Assembly: GCA_025055755.1 (NCBI GenBank)
Contig: JANWWF010000002.1
Coordinates: 199,628 to 263,627, forward strand
Reading direction: 5' to 3'
Length of the DNA: 64,000 nucleotides
From: Candidatus Kapaibacterium sp.
Lineage (GTDB): Bacteria; Bacteroidota; Ignavibacteria; Kapaibacteriales; NICIL-2
Under the pieces are notes generated by a model. The model had not been told where the DNA came from and ran no database searches. It saw nothing but the letters and a program-made list of their open reading frames with translations. Within the stretch, counting starts at the first letter, position 1. The number at the start of each line of letters is the position of its first letter. Shown here in pieces: positions 899-40,322 of this stretch. Both the position numbers and the translations under genes were made by a program.

Positions 899-971
<73 letters not shown>

Positions 972-25809: not shown

Positions 25810-25882
<73 letters not shown>

Positions 25883-25981: not shown

Positions 25982-28390
25982 ATGCGTATTGTCCTTTCTT
26001 GGTTGCAAGAACTTGTCGAGTGGCGCGGTACGGTATCTGAACTTTCCTCGCTATTAGTAAATGAAGGTATCGAAGTCGAGGCTATTGAGGAGGTAGGGAT
26101 ACACACAGAGGCAATTGTTACAGCGCAAGTTATCGAAGTAATGCCCCATCCCGCTGCAGATCATCTTGCGGTGTGTACGGTGTATGATGGTAGCTCAAGG
26201 CGCCAAGTCGTATGTGGGGCACCTAATGTTCAAGTTGGACAACTTGTTGCACTTGCTCTTCCCGGTGCTCGGTTGCCGAATGGACAAGTGCTTGACAGCC
26301 GAAAAATTCGGGGTATTGATTCGCAAGGAATGCTTTGCTCCGAGTCGGAATTAGGTATCGGGGAAGACCATAGTGGAATTGTTGTACTCGATGAAAAAAT
26401 TGGGGTTGGGGTTCCATTGTATAAGGTGTATCCACCAGATGTTGTTTTGGAAATAGGAATCACACCCAATCGTGCCGATGCGCTGTCCCATTATGGTGTT
26501 GCGCGGATTATTGCCGCCGCTTCGGGATGTACAGCTCGTCTACCTGCAGTGGAAGAGATACAGGCGCAACAAGTCATTCCAATCGAGATCGTAGAGCCTG
26601 ATCTGTGTCCACGGTATGCAGGTGCTTTATTGGAGGGAGTCCATCCGTATCCATCGCCCCCCTGGTTAGCGCGTCGGTTGCAGCTTGCCGGAGTCCGCTC
26701 CCGGAATCTGATTGTTGATGTAACCAACTATGTTATGCTTGAATGCGGACAACCACTTCATGCATTTGATTATGAACGGCTTGCCCAGGGGCGTATCGTA
26801 GTTCGCCGCGCGATTCAAAATGAACGGATAACAACTCTGGACGGAGTGGAACGGACGCTTGACAGTGAAACGCTCTGTATTTGTGATGCTGAGCGTCCGC
26901 AAGCTGTGGCGGGCATCATGGGCGGATTAGAGTCTGCAATCAGTAGTGAGACCAGGCAAGTATTGATCGAGTCTGCATATTTTGCACCTCGCAATATTCG
27001 TCGAACGGCGAAAACATTGGGGCTGCACACAGATGCAGCATATCGCTTCGAGCGAGGTACAGACGTCGAAATGGTGCCATACGCCTTACGCCGCGCAGCA
27101 ACCTTAATTGCTCGTTTGAGCAATGCTCAGATAACCCATTGGGCTGACTGTTATCCTCGTCCATGGAAAGAACCTACTGTGGAGTTCCGCTTCGACCATG
27201 CACGTCGAGTGTTAGGAATGGATATTAGCCGATCAACTTTCATATCAGCGATAGCAGGACGTGGCTTCAATATCATCTCAGAGGGGGAGAAAGGCCTCAC
27301 TGTGAGGGTGCCATCATTTCGGCATGATGTTCGTTCCGAAATTGACCTTATCGAAGAGGTAGCTATTGGGGTCGGTTATGACACAGTTCCTCCTTCGCCA
27401 TCTGTAACCCTTTCTTTGTCCCTGGATACAGTTCCAGCGCCACTTGAGGTGTCTCCCGTGCGGCAGGATGTACGGCAGTACTTAGCAGCAATTGGCTTCC
27501 ACGAAGCATTGAGTTATAATCTCAGTGATCCTGCAACCCTCTTGGAAGCGGAAAAGGCGGTGGAAATCGCTAATGCGTTGGGACGAGAACGGAGTGTGCT
27601 GCGGCAGTGGCTTTTGCCAACTATGGTGGAAATTCTCTCGCGGAATGCACGCTGTGGAGTGCGAATTATTCGGGTTTTTGAAATAGGCAAGGTTTTCCGC
27701 CAAGAGCACACTATCACAAGCACAGGCATTCCGGTGACAGAGGAAGAGCACTTGTGCATTGCATTAGCAGGGATATATCGCGAGCGCCATTGGCTTGAGC
27801 CATCGAGACCAGTGGATTTTTTCGATCTCAAAAGTGCAGTTGAGGGGCTAACGAGACGGTTTAGAATGCTCTGTCAATGGCGAGTTGCATCAAGGATGTC
27901 CCATCTTCATCAATGGTTGCAAGACCCGGTCGTGGAGATTCTTCTCGATGGTCAAGTGATCGGTTATGCAGGATCTATTTCCCCTCGACTGTTGCGTCAA
28001 TACGACATTGCCGACGGTGCTGTGGTTGCAGAACTTTCAATGAAGCCTTTCTACGAACGTCGGATACAGTGGGATCATTATCAGCCTCCGTCGCCATTTC
28101 CAACAGTGGTGCGAGATATCGCAGTAGTAGTGGATAGTACAATTCCCAGTGCTGCTCTTGAGGCAACAATTCGAGACGCTATTGGTGAGCTTGTGTCCGA
28201 TGTGGCGCCATTTGATGTCTTTGAGCATCCGGGGCTTGGCGAAGGCAAAAAAAGTATTGCATTTACTCTTACCTTTAGCTCTTCTGAGCGAACATTAACA
28301 GATGAAGAGGTTAACATGGCCGTCGAACAAGCAGTGAAGGCACTTGCGTCTGCTTATGGTGCTGTGCTACGATCGTCAACCACTCAGTGA
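25982..28390 (+). CDS. pheT: Phenylalanine--tRNA ligase beta subunit
   Basis: 802 aa; MRIVLSWLQELVEW start, tRNA-binding, B3/4, B5 and FDX-ACB layout typical of PheT; no pheS adjacent. Confidence 0.9.
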   Translation: MRIVLSWLQELVEWRGTVSELSSLLVNEGIEVEAIEEVGIHTEAIVTAQVIEVMPHPAADHLAVCTVYDGSSRRQVVCGAPNVQVGQLVALALPGARLPNGQVLDSRKIRGIDSQGMLCSESELGIGEDHSGIVVLDEKIGVGVPLYKVYPPDVVLEIGITPNRADALSHYGVARIIAAASGCTARLPAVEEIQAQQVIPIEIVEPDLCPRYAGALLEGVHPYPSPPWLARRLQLAGVRSRNLIVDVTNYVMLECGQPLHAFDYERLAQGRIVVRRAIQNERITTLDGVERTLDSETLCICDAERPQAVAGIMGGLESAISSETRQVLIESAYFAPRNIRRTAKTLGLHTDAAYRFERGTDVEMVPYALRRAATLIARLSNAQITHWADCYPRPWKEPTVEFRFDHARRVLGMDISRSTFISAIAGRGFNIISEGEKGLTVRVPSFRHDVRSEIDLIEEVAIGVGYDTVPPSPSVTLSLSLDTVPAPLEVSPVRQDVRQYLAAIGFHEALSYNLSDPATLLEAEKAVEIANALGRERSVLRQWLLPTMVEILSRNARCGVRIIRVFEIGKVFRQEHTITSTGIPVTEEEHLCIALAGIYRERHWLEPSRPVDFFDLKSAVEGLTRRFRMLCQWRVASRMSHLHQWLQDPVVEILLDGQVIGYAGSISPRLLRQYDIADGAVVAELSMKPFYERRIQWDHYQPPSPFPTVVRDIAVVVDSTIPSAALEATIRDAIGELVSDVAPFDVFEHPGLGEGKKSIAFTLTFSSSERTLTDEEVNMAVEQAVKALASAYGAVLRSSTTQ

Positions 28391-28394
28391 ATGC

Positions 28395-29987
28395 ATGCTG
28401 ATGGAAGAAAATGTTGCAACTGTTAAAGCGGAGATAGAGCGTTTGTGGAAACAGCTCTACAACATTGGCGCGATGCTACAAACAACAGCCGAGCAGTACC
28501 GTGCAGCTCGTGAGACAAACAGGAAACTTGAAGCGCAAGTTCAGGGGCTATCAGAGCAACTTAAGTACTACGAGCACCAGCAGGAGGAGATAAGCCACCT
28601 TCGTTCCGCACTCCAATCGGCTGAAGATCGGCTTAGACAAGCTAATGAGGCAATTGCTCTTTTAGAGCAGCAGCGGCAGCAATTAGAGCAGGTGCTCAAT
28701 GCCCAACAGTTAGAATTTGAAAGCTATGAGCAGCTTCGTTCGGAACTTACTACGCTGCAACAGTTATATGGGCAGCTGACCGAAGACTATCGTGCTGTCC
28801 AGCAACAAGTTGCACAGGTGGAAACCCTGGAAAAAGAAAACCTCCAGTTACGAGATATTATCGCACAATACGAGCATGAACACCTACGCGCAGTTGCGCA
28901 GCAAGAAGAGCTCGACTATCTCCGGCAGCTTGTTGAACAACTCCGAAGAGAGAAGGAGGACTTGGCTGGCCAATTGGCGGCAGAGAAAGAAACTCAACAA
29001 TTGCTTCAGCAGAAGATTGTGCAAGGAGAAGCTCTTCGCCTCGAATTAGAAAAAGCAAATGCAACTGTTGCAGATCTTCGTACCCAATTGCGGCAGAAAG
29101 AGACTGAGATAGCACAGCTTCGCCAGCATGTTGATTATGCAGAACAGGTACTGGCGAATTCACTACCCAACGAGATGTTTGAACAATGGAAACGTCAACT
29201 GCAACAAGAATTGGAAAGCAGTGCTGCACATGCAGCAGAACTTGCTGAACAACTACACCGTGTCGGAGCAGAGCGAGATGACCTACTGGAGACACTCAAA
29301 CAGAAACAAACTGAGTTGGAACAACTGCAATCTCAATATGACACCTTACGCAAGCAGTACGATGAACTGGTGCAAAGTCATTCCCAGATCAATAGCAATG
29401 ATTCAAGTGAAAGGGAGCAAGTGAGCAAGTTATTGCAACAACTTGAACTGAGCGAAAAGGCAGCTCAACAGCACCAGCAACGATTAGTAGAGCTAACCGA
29501 GCAAATAGCAAATCTCCAAAGTCTTGTGGCACAGTATCAGCAACAGCAGCAGAGCATCGAACAGCAAATAGCCGATGCTCTTTCTCCCTTTCAAATTAAA
29601 CTAGAAGCTGCAGAGCGGGAACGCAAGCACTTACAAGAGCAGATTTTGCATCAGCGGCAGCGCATTGTACAGCTTGAAGATGAGCTTCGAAAGGAGTTAG
29701 AAAGAAACATCCTTCTCAAACGCCGAATCCGGCAGCTGGAAGGTTTTCCTTCCTCCGTGCAGATAACTCAAGTTTTAGAAGCAATTCGTCACCTTCATGA
29801 GCAATTGGTTGCTAATGTTCATTCCGATCAAGAGGGTGGTTACTCATCTGTGTCTCCGGAGCTGAGGGAAGTAATAGCACAGGTAACACAATTGGTAAAC
29901 CACCGACTAAATTTGGTATTTGAGGAGGACCTCCGTCGAGCAGTTACTGAATGTCGGTGCTTACTGGAGGAGTACTTGCGTCGATAA
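28395..29987 (+). CDS. Long coiled-coil protein (Q/E/L-rich), function unknown
   Basis: ~530 aa of heptad-like low-complexity sequence (LEQQRQQLEQVLNAQQLEFES...); start immediately after pheT stop; directly upstream of zapA. Confidence 0.5.
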   Translation: MLMEENVATVKAEIERLWKQLYNIGAMLQTTAEQYRAARETNRKLEAQVQGLSEQLKYYEHQQEEISHLRSALQSAEDRLRQANEAIALLEQQRQQLEQVLNAQQLEFESYEQLRSELTTLQQLYGQLTEDYRAVQQQVAQVETLEKENLQLRDIIAQYEHEHLRAVAQQEELDYLRQLVEQLRREKEDLAGQLAAEKETQQLLQQKIVQGEALRLELEKANATVADLRTQLRQKETEIAQLRQHVDYAEQVLANSLPNEMFEQWKRQLQQELESSAAHAAELAEQLHRVGAERDDLLETLKQKQTELEQLQSQYDTLRKQYDELVQSHSQINSNDSSEREQVSKLLQQLELSEKAAQQHQQRLVELTEQIANLQSLVAQYQQQQQSIEQQIADALSPFQIKLEAAERERKHLQEQILHQRQRIVQLEDELRKELERNILLKRRIRQLEGFPSSVQITQVLEAIRHLHEQLVANVHSDQEGGYSSVSPELREVIAQVTQLVNHRLNLVFEEDLRRAVTECRCLLEEYLRR

Positions 29988-30087: not shown

Positions 30088-30387
30088 ATGACGACGGTGA
30101 CGGTTACTATTGGTGGACGTCAGCTTCGGCTACGATGTGAAGATGAGCAGCGCACGCTCAAAGCAGCTGCAGAGGTCGAAAACGTTTTTCGTGCCTTACA
30201 ACACGAGTCAAGCGATCAATCAACACCAATACTGACACTTCTTGCTGCCCTTAACATAGCTGAACGGCATGATGCCGCAAGAGAACAGTACAAGGCTACC
30301 CTTGAGTATGTTCTGGAACAGCTTCGTGCAATGAGCATATACGCTGATGATATTATACGCCAAACGGTAGAGTTAGCAGCAGGATAG
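30088..30387 (+). CDS. zapA: Cell division protein ZapA
   Basis: MTTVTVTIGGRQLRLRCEDEQRTLKAAAEVENVFRAL... matches ZapA N-terminal pattern; ~100 aa (upstream part of listed ORF judged non-coding). Confidence 0.7.
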   Translation: MTTVTVTIGGRQLRLRCEDEQRTLKAAAEVENVFRALQHESSDQSTPILTLLAALNIAERHDAAREQYKATLEYVLEQLRAMSIYADDIIRQTVELAAG

Positions 30388-30444
30388 TGGGGAACATCAA
30401 TGGTGACCAGATGCGTAGCGTCGTTGTTCTTTGGAAAAAATCCT

Positions 30445-30692
30445 GACAAATGCGAGCCGTACTTCATCATCGTTGCACACGCGTAGCGCAGAACCGATAG
30501 GGTAAAAGCAGGGAAATAGGCTCCGCATCCCAATGGCAGACTGCACCGCACCTTGTGCGGCCAGACTTTCTGGCAGCAGGAGCCAGCGGCATGCGGGCTA
30601 TTACCCACTGTGTGCTTGGAGGGTTCTTGCGATACCCCGTGCTGCCACTGCTCTCAGTGGCGCAGGATGTATGGAGTACGGCTCGTGTTTTT
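30445..30692 (+). ncRNA. Candidate structured small RNA, possibly 6S RNA (ssrS)
   Basis: Perfect 11-bp long-range complement cgagccgtact (30453-30463) / agtacggctcg (30674-30684) closing a ~220-nt region with several internal hairpins (ccgcac/gtgcgg; gccactg/cagtggc; ggcagca/tgctgcc), followed by TTTTTT at 30687-30692; located right after zapA as ssrS is in E. coli. Confidence 0.45.
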
Positions 30693-30731
30693 TCTTCGGT
30701 AATGTTTCACTATACCCCTACAGGATGAACA

Positions 30732-32294
30732 ATGGAGTACATGACAATACTGATTTTGAGTGTCGTAGGATTAGTATTAGGCTTCGGGGTTGCGTACTTT
30801 GCTGGTAGTCGCGCGGCGGCTAATCGAATCGCAGATGCCCAGGAAAAAGCGAAAGCGATCTTAGAGGAAGCCGAAAAAGAGGCTCGGACGATCAAAAAAG
30901 AACGCTTGCTCGAGGTTAAGGAAGAACTTCACAAGAAGCGCCAGGAGCTCGAGAAAGAATATGCTGCACGCCGAGCAAAATTGCAAAGTCAAGAAAAGCA
31001 GCTTGTTAGTCGTGAAGAGGCTATCGAAAGCAAGCTTGAGCTGATTGCTCGAAAAGAAAAACAGATCCAACAAGCCGATCAGGAGCTCCAACGTAAGCAG
31101 CGACTTATTGAGCAAAAACTTAAAGAAGCAGAAGCGCTTGTGGCAGAACAGAACAAGCGCTTAGAGCGTATTACGGGCATGTCACAAGAAGAGGCAAAGC
31201 GCTATCTTATCGAGAACATGGTAAATGAAGCACGAGCGGAGGCTGCGCTCCTTGTCAAGCAGATTCGTGATGAAGCTAAACAACAAGCCCAGCGGGAAGC
31301 GCAGAAACTTGTTATTGAAGCAATTCAGCGGACAGCCTCGGACCATTGCGTCGAAACAACAGTCTCTGTTGTCAATCTCGCTAGCGAGGAGCTCAAAGGA
31401 CGTATCATTGGAAAGGAAGGGAGAAATATTCGAGCCTTTGAATCGGCAACAGGTGTTGATTTGATCATCGATGATACACCGGAGGCGGTAGCAATTTCAG
31501 CGTTCGATCCTTATCGTCGGGAAATAGCGCGCATTGCGCTTGAGCGATTGTTAGCAGATGGACGTATCCACCCTGCACGTATCGAGGAGGTGGTGGAAAA
31601 AGCCCGCAAGGAGGTAGATGAGGAGATAGTCCGTGCAGGCGAGCAGGCAGTTATCGAGCTTGGCATTCACAATATGCACCCCGAGCTGATTCGCCATGTG
31701 GGCAAAATGAAGTACCGATCCAGTTACGGACAGAATCTACTTGCGCATTCGATCGAGGTGGCGTTTCTTGCGGGGATTATGGCTGCAGAGTTAGGACTTG
31801 ATGTTCAACATGCGAAACGCGCGGGCTTGCTCCATGACATTGGCAAGGTGCTTGACCGTAATACTGACGGTCCACACGCTATCCTGGGTATGGAGCTCGC
31901 TAAGCGCTATCGTGAACATCACGTCGTTTGCAATGCCATCGGTGCTCACCATGAGGATATCGAAATGGAAACGCCAATTGCAGTATTGGTGCAAGCAGCT
32001 GATTCAATTAGTGGTGCGCGCCCCGGTGCCCGCCGTGAGTCGCTCGAGCAATATATCAAGCGCCTGGAGAAGCTCGAAGAAATTGCTATGAGTTTCGACG
32101 GAGTACAGAAAACGTTTGCTATTCAAGCAGGAAGGGAAGTTCGTGTTATTGTCGAACCGGAAAAAGTAGATGATCTAACAGCAGACCAGCTTGCAACTGA
32201 CATTGCCAAGCGAATAGAAGAAGAAATGGATTATCCCGGACAGATTAAAGTTACCGTTATTCGAGAACGGCGCAGCTACGCCATAGCAAAGTGA
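30732..32294 (+). CDS. rny: Ribonuclease Y
   Basis: 520 aa; N-terminal TM helix, coiled-coil, KH ([13 protein letters not shown]) and HD ([19 protein letters not shown]...LLHDIGK) domains. Confidence 0.9.
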
Positions 32295-32409: not shown

Positions 32410-33261
32410 TTATCCCTTCCTTTGCGGTGAGGCTTGTTCTGCTTCGTACTGCTGCAGCTTTTTTCGCAGGTCATTACAAATTTGCGTATGAATTTGGCAT
32501 ATGCGACTTTCTGTTAGCCCAAGAATTTCACCTATTTCCTTGAAGGTGAGCTCTTCATAGTAGTACAGTGTCATTACTAATCGCTTGCGCTCGGGAAGCT
32601 GTTGAAGGTACTCTCGTACAAAGTTGACTCGCTCCTCTCGTACGAGTCTTGAAAATGGAGTCTCTGCATCAAAGTCGGGTAACTCTTCTATCGTGTCATG
32701 CTCATTGCCTTCATCATCATAAGTAACCTCCGAATTCATCATCGAAAACGTGGCGTTCGCAGCTGCCATCGCACTTAGGTATGACTGGTACTCTTCCGGT
32801 GATATACCCAGTCGTGCTTGAATTTCCTCTGGTGAGGCTTCGCGTCCAAGTTCACTCCGGAGACGGTCACTTATTTCCGTTAGCTCGTGAACTTTTTGAC
32901 GGGCTGATCGTGAAAGCCAATCTAGTTTACGCATTTCATCAAGAATGATGCCGCGAACGCGAGGTACTGCAAAGGTTTCGAACTTGATACCTCGCTCGGG
33001 CTCGAAGCGCTCAATTGCGTCGTGCAATCCAAGAATTCCTACATGGAGGAAATCTTCCTCATTCAGCAGCGCGTTTGAAGGTATGTTCATGTTGTAGAGC
33101 GTGTATCGCACGATCCAGAGGTAGTGCAGGAGTAATTGTCGTTTGATCTCATTTTTTCGTGCTTTTGAGATACGGCGCGAGCGCAACTCTTGCCAGAGTT
33201 CTGCAAAAGCTATCTCTCCTGTTGTTCCCTGCTGAGAAGGGGATATTTTTTGCATGGCCAT
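32410..33261 (-). CDS. fliA: RNA polymerase sigma factor FliA/WhiG family (sigma-28)
   Basis: 283 aa; regions 2-4 of sigma-70 family with FliA-like conservation (LWQEL...YLWIVRY...GILGLHDAIERFEPERGIKFETFAVPRVRGIILDEMR). Confidence 0.7.
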   Translation of the reverse strand: MAMQKISPSQQGTTGEIAFAELWQELRSRRISKARKNEIKRQLLLHYLWIVRYTLYNMNIPSNALLNEEDFLHVGILGLHDAIERFEPERGIKFETFAVPRVRGIILDEMRKLDWLSRSARQKVHELTEISDRLRSELGREASPEEIQARLGISPEEYQSYLSAMAAANATFSMMNSEVTYDDEGNEHDTIEELPDFDAETPFSRLVREERVNFVREYLQQLPERKRLVMTLYYYEELTFKEIGEILGLTESRICQIHTQICNDLRKKLQQYEAEQASPQRKG

Positions 33262-39642: not shown

Positions 39643-40308
39643 ATGACGATTTTTGCTACGAGTATGACGATTGAACCAACCAATATCATGGAGGCAATTG
39701 CACGTCAGCACCTGCGCGAGTCCATTGAAACTAAGCAGCGGTTATTACTAACGGCTATTTCAGCAATTGTTCGGACAGGCGATCGAATTGCAGATGCTCT
39801 TTCTCGGGGGGGTAAAGTGTTGCTCTGCGGTAATGGGGGATCTGCAGCAGATGCACAGCATATTGCAGCAGAGTTAGTCATTCGCTATCGGAGTCAGGTA
39901 GTGCGACCTGCTCTCCCTGCAATAGCTTTGACAGTAGATCCATCGTTGATGACTGCTGGTGGAAATGATATCGGATTCGACAATGTTTTTGCACGCGCGG
40001 TCGAAGCGTTAGGGGTGAAGGGGGATGTACTTATCGGGATTAGTACCAGTGGCAAATCGGAAAATGTTCGTCGAGCAATTGAAGTTGCTAAAGGTAAGGG
40101 CATAGTGTGTATTGGACTTCTTGGAGGTGATGGAGGTCCGATCGCTCCATTATGCGATGATGTCGTGATCGTTCCCAGTTCGATTACTGCGCACATTCAA
40201 GAGTGCCACATTACAGTTGGTCACATTTGGTGTAGCATCATTGAAGCGCGGCTTTATCCAGATCTTGTATCCCAGGCAGGTTTGACGGTGAAGGAATCGG
40301 AATTGTAA
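39643..40308 (+). CDS. gmhA: SIS-domain phosphoheptose isomerase (GmhA/DiaA-like)
   Basis: 221 aa; LLCGNGGSAADAQHIAAEL and GISTSGKSENV SIS motifs. Confidence 0.65.
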   Translation: MTIFATSMTIEPTNIMEAIARQHLRESIETKQRLLLTAISAIVRTGDRIADALSRGGKVLLCGNGGSAADAQHIAAELVIRYRSQVVRPALPAIALTVDPSLMTAGGNDIGFDNVFARAVEALGVKGDVLIGISTSGKSENVRRAIEVAKGKGIVCIGLLGGDGGPIAPLCDDVVIVPSSITAHIQECHITVGHIWCSIIEARLYPDLVSQAGLTVKESEL

Positions 40309-40322
40309 TTTTGCATCGCATT

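Follow-up and report, generated by a model that had tools for sequence, protein, structure and literature searches.

6S RNA is a global brake on RNA polymerase. The locus considered here, in a 64,000-nt stretch of a contig of Candidatus Kapaibacterium sp. (the window), raises the question of whether the gap between zapA and rny, the gene for RNase Y, encodes such an RNA. The initial annotation, which was made from the sequence alone, proposed a 6S RNA homolog in this gap and named a structured 5′ leader controlling rny as the alternative. The gap was confirmed to be 344 nt long and non-coding, with the zapA stop at 30387 and the rny start at 30732. The 6S proposal is supported by a 6S-like fold, by covariation, and by family-level homology to Bacteroidales-1 (RF01693) and the 6S RNA of Bacteroides thetaiotaomicron, and the element is very probably the 6S RNA gene (the ssrS equivalent) of this Kapaibacteria/Ignavibacteria-group bacterium.

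The features of the locus are listed in Table 1. The RNase Y encoded in the window is 92% identical to that of Kapabacteria MAGs and 60-75% identical to those of Ignavibacteria and Melioribacter, and by this measure the window belongs to the Kapaibacteria/Ignavibacteria group. A search with the RNase Y protein, aimed at Bacteroidota/Chlorobiota loci, reached no relative below 66% identity. Two neighboring genes may also be mentioned. Directly 5′ of zapA, and overlapping its extended reading frame, is a 547-aa Q/E/L-rich coiled-coil ORF (28344-29987, plus strand) with recognizable conservation in the six closest relatives only. A gene for a sigma-70-family factor (regions 2, 3, and 4; 283 aa; 32410-33261, minus strand) is convergent with the 3′ end of rny.

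Table 1. Features of the zapA-rny locus and related promoters, in window coordinates.
Feature	Position	Strand	Remarks
zapA	30088-30387	+	99 aa; Pfam ZapA, E = 4.2e-11; direct 5′ neighbor, outside the RNA
Conserved upstream motif GTTCTTTGGA	30426-30435	+	Candidate variant -7 box; predicted start near 30439
Predicted 6S-like RNA transcript	30439-30693	+	5′ end predicted; structured core 30448-30690
P1 closing stem, 5′ strand	30452-30472	+	Pairs with 30665-30686
P2, 5′ strand (core AGAACC)	30479-30495	+	Pairs with 30622-30639
Central bubble, 5′ strand (GATAGGGTAAAAGCA)	30496-30510	+	Predicted pRNA template; putative start near T30498
P3, 5′ strand (starts GGG)	30511-30537	+	Pairs with 30582-30606
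Apical three-way junction	30538-30581	+	Helix 30541-44/30576-79; hairpin 1 30546-30560; hairpin 2 30561-30573
P3, 3′ strand (ends ACCC)	30582-30606	+	Covariation
Central bubble, 3′ strand (ACTGTGTGCTTGGAG)	30607-30621	+	ACYGTGT part highly conserved
P2, 3′ strand (GGTTCTTGCG...)	30622-30639	+	Covariation
Branch hairpin, 3′ side (GCCACTG ctct CAGTGGC)	30644-30661	+	Between P2 and P1; inverted-repeat search
P1 closing stem, 3′ strand	30665-30686	+	Covariation and inverted-repeat search
T6 run (U-tail, intrinsic-terminator-like 3′ end)	30688-30693	+	Read from the sequence
rny (RNase Y)	30732-32294	+	Pfam RNase_Y_N, KH, and HD domains; direct 3′ neighbor, outside the RNA
tRNA-gene promoters	40281-40284 and 40306-40313		Two more precede the tRNA genes 899-971 (-) and 25810-25882 (-)

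Structure and conservation of the element

The folding check gave a stable closed structure. The minimum free energy of positions 30448-30693 on the plus strand is -124.1 kcal/mol, versus -89.2 ± 4.6 kcal/mol in 200 dinucleotide shuffles (z = -7.6), none of which was as stable, while the minus strand folds less markedly (z = -5.4, dinucleotide shuffles). The strand can be assigned as plus from the many G-U pairs and from the U-run at the 3′ end.

Most of the pairings that the initial annotation had read from the letters were recovered, some of them slightly displaced. The perfect 11-bp pairing exists (cgagccgtact, 30453-30463, with agtacggctcg), its 3′ arm being located at 30675-30685 instead of 30674-30684. 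It can be extended with bulges, as had been suggested, to the 20-nt arms returned by an inverted-repeat search (30448-30467 and 30671-30690, 85% complementarity). The T6 run does follow the closing stem, at the position given in Table 1 and not at 30687-30692. Two of the local hairpins are present, namely ccgcac/gtgcgg (30546-51/30555-60) and gccactg/cagtggc (30644-50/30655-61). The complementarity of ggcagca and tgctgcc (30571-78/30640-47) also exists, but this pairing was rejected as part of the structure because it is incompatible with the conserved, covariation-supported fold.

The element is widely conserved. Intergenic sequence upstream of rny was found by nhmmer in 24 loci. A covariance model of the zapA-rny element built from ten sequences (R1), which matches positions 30447-30697 of the window at 233 bits, detects the element at E ≤ 1e-3 in 72 loci and in the window (73 sources), each time on the plus strand and shortly before rny. 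The match is weaker in locus L073, and L035 and L036 have weak matches at the expected position with the filters off. The element is thereby placed between zapA and rny in about 76 of the 77 Kapaibacteria/Ignavibacteria loci with enough upstream sequence. The only locus with full upstream sequence and no match is L020 (rny at ~3986, with a 4-kb upstream flank), in which R1 finds nothing at the expected position with the filters off. A ZapA homolog is encoded directly upstream in 71 of the 74 loci checked. Across loci, the element begins -9 to +217 nt from the zapA stop and lies 9 to 868 nt from rny, with no conserved ORF between the element and rny.

Some of the spacers toward rny have features of their own. 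That of L053 (1899-2765, 867 nt) carries tandem G/A-rich repeats (GGGGGAATAAAAAGGGAAGCCCTCC...) around an N run, which marks an assembly gap or a masked stretch. L030 (3690-3949) and L033 (3693-3949) share a GC-rich (~61%) spacer of ~260 nt from the RNA terminator to rny; it has no convincing ORF and may represent either a long leader of rny or a conserved element in its own right.

The complementarity is kept in the related genomes, with both sides changing at 50 of 53 pairs among the 73 homologs. In the 73-sequence alignment, which was fitted to the covariance model and therefore favors structure, 86.8% of cells pair, and sliding the 3′ partners by 1-3 columns lowers this to 39-45%; the slid controls have covariation scores of 0.06-0.09, the true register 0.47, and none of 500 shuffles reaches the observed values. 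Compensatory changes are already present in the MAFFT alignment, P2 having CGCA/UGCG (TGCG in the DNA) in the clade of the window versus AUGAA/UUCAU in the next clade. With regard to the individual helices, both sides change at all 20 pairs of P1 (85-88% of cells paired in the 73 homologs), the P2 region (helices 3-5 of the covariation analysis) is 81-89% paired, and the P3 region (helices 6-9) is 80-99% paired with many both-side changes. P3 was also recovered independently by RNAalifold. P1 and P2 are joined by 6 nt on the 5′ side.

The first RNAalifold consensus contained another arrangement, a GCACA/TGTGC pairing together with a local GGGU/ACCC hairpin. This was rejected because it is invariant in the aligned set and its 5′ partner is not conserved family-wide, and because the competing long-range P2 shows the compensatory changes.

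The central bubble flanked by long irregular stems, which had been named as the feature to look for, was found in all 73 homologs at 14-19 × 13-18 nt. Its 5′ strand (median 16 nt) is A/U-rich and variable in sequence, and its 3′ strand has a median of 15 nt. G-C-rich pairs border the bubble on both sides (GAACC/GGUUC and GGG/CCC). The closing stem, large central loop, and apical stem of a 6S rod thus correspond to P1, P2, and P3, all with covariation in the 73 homologs, and a size-constrained loop of ~15 × 15 nt with G-C-rich flanks in a long rod is the architecture of 6S RNA. The two apical hairpins occur in 65 of the 73 homologs, the junction of the window copy being flanked by AATGGCAGAC and CAGCAGGAGCC. 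The branch hairpin is found at its position in 37 of the 73, with variable sequence; this insertion between P2 and P1 is specific to the lineage and is missing from Bacteroidales-1.

The element is a genuine, widely conserved small-RNA gene. It could be argued that it is the 3′ UTR of zapA with a terminator and fortuitous extra structure, given its start close to the zapA stop and its terminal U-run. Nevertheless, covariation over ~240 nt in 73 genomes and homology to a small-RNA family exceed the needs of a terminator, and the extent of the covariation excludes a simple zapA terminator; we regard this explanation as barely credible.

Relationship to known 6S RNA families

No Rfam family reached its gathering threshold in the window region or in 15 related loci, and the permissive search (E ≤ 10) of 30300-30800 gave nothing relevant, with neither the canonical 6S model (RF00013) nor 6S-Flavo (RF01685) among the matches. 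RF00013, the model to which the initial annotation had pointed, therefore failed to recognize the element both at its gathering threshold and at E ≤ 10. R1 did not detect ssrS in the E. coli ssrS locus, where it found only terminator-like hairpins, and sequence profiles gave no link above shuffles between the element and either 6S-Flavo or E. coli 6S. The profile link from 6S-Flavo to Bacteroidales-1 is itself marginal.

A relationship was found with the Bacteroidales-1 family. It was reported from dRNA-seq that B. thetaiotaomicron has a 6S RNA with antisense pRNAs, BTnc017 (NC_004663.1:512924-513104), and a TSS was called for the pRNA (PMC7366714). This RNA is in the Bacteroidales-1 seed of Weinberg et al. 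2010 (NC_004663.1/512928-513105), and Rfam 15 describes RF01693 as "6S-Bacteroidales RNA suggested". An HMM of the element family scores 6.7 bits on the B. thetaiotaomicron 6S RNA, versus at most 0.4 in 1000 shuffles, and matches 12 of 18 Bacteroidales-1 sequences, the highest score being 16.9 bits (best of 900 shuffles, -3.8). In the reverse profile search, 22 of the 73 element sequences score at least 2.5 bits, versus 1 of 1460 shuffles.

A covariance model built from 13 Bacteroidales-1 sequences only (R2) was searched against 726 kb on both strands (1.45 Mb). Ten of its top 15 matches fall on the zapA-rny element, on the plus strand, including L007 (26.8 bits, E = 0.005), L054 (23.5), L063 (21.3), L057 (20.8), and L050 (20.4). 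The alignment is collinear, with P2, the bubble, P3, and the junction each aligned to their counterparts; the helix that corresponds to P2 in Bacteroidales-1 is GAAACUC/GGAGUUUC. Among 4227 Rfam families, RF01693 is the best on L007, the best family member, at 20 bits (E = 0.22), which does not reach its gathering score of 60 bits. L007, L054, and L063 are intermediate members that grade into Bacteroidales-1 sequence.

The two families share the order of their helices: P1, P2, an A/U-rich bubble of ~15-20 × 15 nt, P3, and a junction with two hairpins. In both, P1 has the form AGCCGYA.../...UGCGGCU followed by a U-run, and the ends of the closing stem match (AGCCGYAU...AUGCGGCU and Us). The apical three-way junction of the RF01693 type, with two hairpins and flanking motifs, is present in the element family. 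The flanks read AAUGGCGGGCC / CGGUGGAUUACAAA in Bacteroidales-1 and AAUnGCAGGCC / CAGUGGAAGCAAAA in the element family; those of the window copy are diverged (AAUGGCAGAC / CAGCAGGAGCC), and the alignment with Bacteroidales-1 holds at the family level.

On these sequence comparisons, the element family is homologous to Bacteroidales-1, including the validated 6S RNA of B. thetaiotaomicron. The homology was found at the level of the family, the window copy alone not being significant: with R2 it gives only 2.6 bits (E = 0.62) for a collinear match at the expected position, and it has no RF01693 match in the permissive Rfam search. Its link to 6S is therefore transitive via the family, and its assignment follows from its unambiguous R1 membership (233 bits) together with the family-level link to Bacteroidales-1. 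The element is very probably the 6S RNA of this lineage, a distant RF01693 relative with lineage-specific insertions that all current Rfam models miss at threshold.

A related small RNA need not have kept its function, and the element might act otherwise than by binding polymerase, e.g., as a protein sponge or as a scaffold for RNase Y or cell division. The extra domains (the 3′ branch hairpin and the lengthened P2) could be read in this way, as could the strong conservation of unpaired stretches (ACYGTGT, AAUnGCAGGCC, and CAGUGGAAG), a 3′ bubble strand unlike that of Bacteroidales-1, the strict zapA-rny context absent from Bacteroidales, and the lack of an RF00013 match. However, the features that define 6S RNA (bubble size, flanking helices, and apical junction) are conserved, the intermediate members connect the family to Bacteroidales-1, and the Rfam scan gave no other 6S candidate within the 64-kb window. 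A different function is accordingly given a small probability only, and a 6S RNA remains the preferred reading.

Transcription signals and predicted mode of action

A promoter, polymerase binding, pRNA synthesis, and a physiological role may be predicted for the element by analogy with known systems. A motif GTTCTTTG(G)AA (30426-30435 in the window, where it occurs once) is found 11-39 nt before the P1 core (mode 18-23) in 34 of the 73 loci. In these 34 loci, the 120 nt before P1 contain TTCTTT followed by G, C, or A, a pattern with a background of 0.26 per kb per strand. None of the 73 loci has the exact Bacteroidetes -7 box (TAnnTTTG) upstream of the element; only the TTCTTTG variant is conserved there, and it shares only TTTG with TAnnTTTG. 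Bacteroidetes-type promoters (-33 TTTG and -7 TAnnTTTG; e.g., TAATTTTG and TATTTTTG) are located just upstream of three tRNA genes of the window, and its lineage apparently uses the Bacteroidetes promoter grammar. By analogy, GTTCTTTGGA is probably a variant -7 box that would place the start near 30439.

Two complementarities in this region were observed. GTTCTTTGGA matches the 3′ strand of P2 (GGTTCTT) and is complementary to its 5′ strand, and it could compete for P2 pairing in a longer precursor. In addition, the A-run GAAAAAA (30434-30440) is complementary to the terminal T-run TTTTTTC (30688-30694); if the A-run is transcribed, the closing stem could become longer, or else the terminator could work in both directions.

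At the 3′ end, a run of at least five T within 16 nt after P1 is present in 55 of the 73 homologs. From the U-runs, the positioned upstream motif, and the variable distance to rny, the element looks like a separate gene. In the Melioribacter/Ignavibacteriaceae group, the U-run is weak or absent and the element ends 9-22 nt before the ribosome-binding site of rny. There, the element would be part of the rny 5′ UTR because of these two features, and read-through with processing is likely, by analogy with E. coli ssrS-fau.

It is at this point that a leader or attenuator of rny has to be weighed, which would set RNase Y levels by terminating or processing transcripts that run in from zapA or start at its own promoter, with no action in trans on polymerase. 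The element is always on the same strand as rny and directly upstream of it, its closing stem and U-run resemble an intrinsic terminator before rny, and in the Melioribacter/Ignavibacteriaceae group it adjoins the Shine-Dalgarno sequence with no clear U-run. Against this, the Bacteroidales homolog is a validated 6S RNA that follows rplT and is unrelated to rny, the spacing to rny varies from 9 to 868 nt, and no conserved pairing that could act as an antiterminator was found (the only alternative hairpin looked at is not conserved). A covarying domain of 240 nt with a size-constrained 15 × 15 loop also exceeds what an attenuator needs, and co-transcription is itself compatible with 6S, since in E. 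coli ssrS and fau share a dicistronic transcript that is then processed (PMC7641849). The rny-unlinked Bacteroidales homologs, the variable spacing, and the lack of a conserved alternative pairing thus disfavor a dedicated leader, and the alternative named by the initial annotation is not favored as the primary function; we consider it quite improbable in that role, though the element may act on rny secondarily.

The predicted 6S RNA would act as follows. Transcription would probably start from its own promoter just after zapA and end at the closing stem and U-run, ~40 nt before rny. The resulting RNA of ~245 nt would form an irregular rod whose central loop of ~15 × 15 nt imitates an open promoter. 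By analogy with characterized 6S RNAs, it would sit in the active site of the housekeeping holoenzyme (sigma-A RNA polymerase) and lower transcription during slow growth; its release would come with the synthesis of a short pRNA by the polymerase on the 5′ bubble strand. The 6S gene of B. thetaiotaomicron contains an orphan TSS, 512957 (tabulated with no strand), at C34, 2 nt into the 5′ bubble strand beside P2. With the same geometry, pRNA synthesis in the window copy may start near T30498, read into P2, and unzip the structure. A CCC...GGG hairpin enclosing the 3′ bubble strand was considered as a pRNA-induced rearrangement and rejected, ~20 of the 73 homologs being without it.

Comparison with known 6S systems

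The position beside zapA was the starting point of the 6S proposal. In E. coli, the order is zapA, a 41-nt gap, ssrS (on the strand of zapA, as for the element), and fau, and the adjacency of ZapA and SsrS is conserved in beta- and gamma-proteobacteria (PMC7641849). The adjacency cited by the initial annotation is hence real. However, the argument is weak alone, because in B. thetaiotaomicron the 6S RNA, which is the nearest validated relative, follows rplT and not zapA. The latter RNA is located after BT_0423-0425 (BT_0423 being infC, for IF-3, and BT_0424-0425 presumably rpmI and rplT), beside neither zapA nor rny. A place downstream of rplT is in turn not shared by the element, which is between zapA and rny in nearly all loci. 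Synteny is thus suggestive, not decisive, as evidence for 6S. The order of coiled-coil protein, ZapA, and 6S in the window echoes the proteobacterial ZapB-ZapA-SsrS array.

The locus provides a second, phylogenetically distant linkage of zapA and 6S, so that the question of why 6S RNA adjoins a division gene can now be tested by comparison. One could imagine an ancient or repeatedly selected coupling of 6S to cell division, with the RNA also forming the 5′ part of the rny transcript and its maturation tied to RNase Y expression in a zapA-6S-rny growth-state module, an idea that we hold to be rather unlikely.

For annotation, the element fills a gap, as the genomes of Kapaibacteria, Ignavibacteria, and Melioribacter otherwise seem to be without 6S RNA because no Rfam model reaches threshold on it. 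With it, the Bacteroides-type 6S family (RF01693) also reaches beyond Bacteroidales, and the ~75 diverse sequences with a covariation-supported structure are a basis for a better model. With regard to structure, 6S RNA would tolerate a side hairpin and a lengthened closing arm at a fixed bubble size.

In comparison with E. coli ssrS, both RNAs are rods with a large central bubble, whereas the element has a three-way apical junction and a side hairpin, unlike canonical 6S. The helix-bubble junction reads GAACC-GAUA in the element and GAGCC-GAUA in E. coli (the hyphen marking the boundary), opposite GGGUUC and GGGUUA, respectively. In E. coli, pRNA synthesis starts at the U of this junction. The likeness is suggestive and may be resemblance only. 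The 3′ ends differ, the element having an intrinsic-terminator-like U-run while E. coli 6S is processed from the dicistronic ssrS-fau transcript (PMC7641849), and the downstream gene is rny in one case and fau/ygfA in the other. The predicted RNA (~245-255 nt) is at the upper end of the 150-250 nt range for 6S transcripts and, with its branch hairpin, longer than typical 6S RNAs. 6S-Flavo (RF01685) is also a 6S variant of the same superphylum that RF00013 misses; it shares no significant profile similarity with the element and gives no Rfam match on it.

Bacteroidales-1 is the closest known system. The element RNA exceeds it in length by ~60 nt and has an additional branch hairpin on the 3′ side and a longer P2, and the 3′ bubble strand contains ACYGUGU where Bacteroidales-1 has CAAAUCUUGUCA. 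The two families also differ in taxon (Kapaibacteria/Ignavibacteria versus Bacteroidales) and in gene place, the element being found between zapA and rny and the B. thetaiotaomicron 6S RNA after infC-rpmI-rplT.
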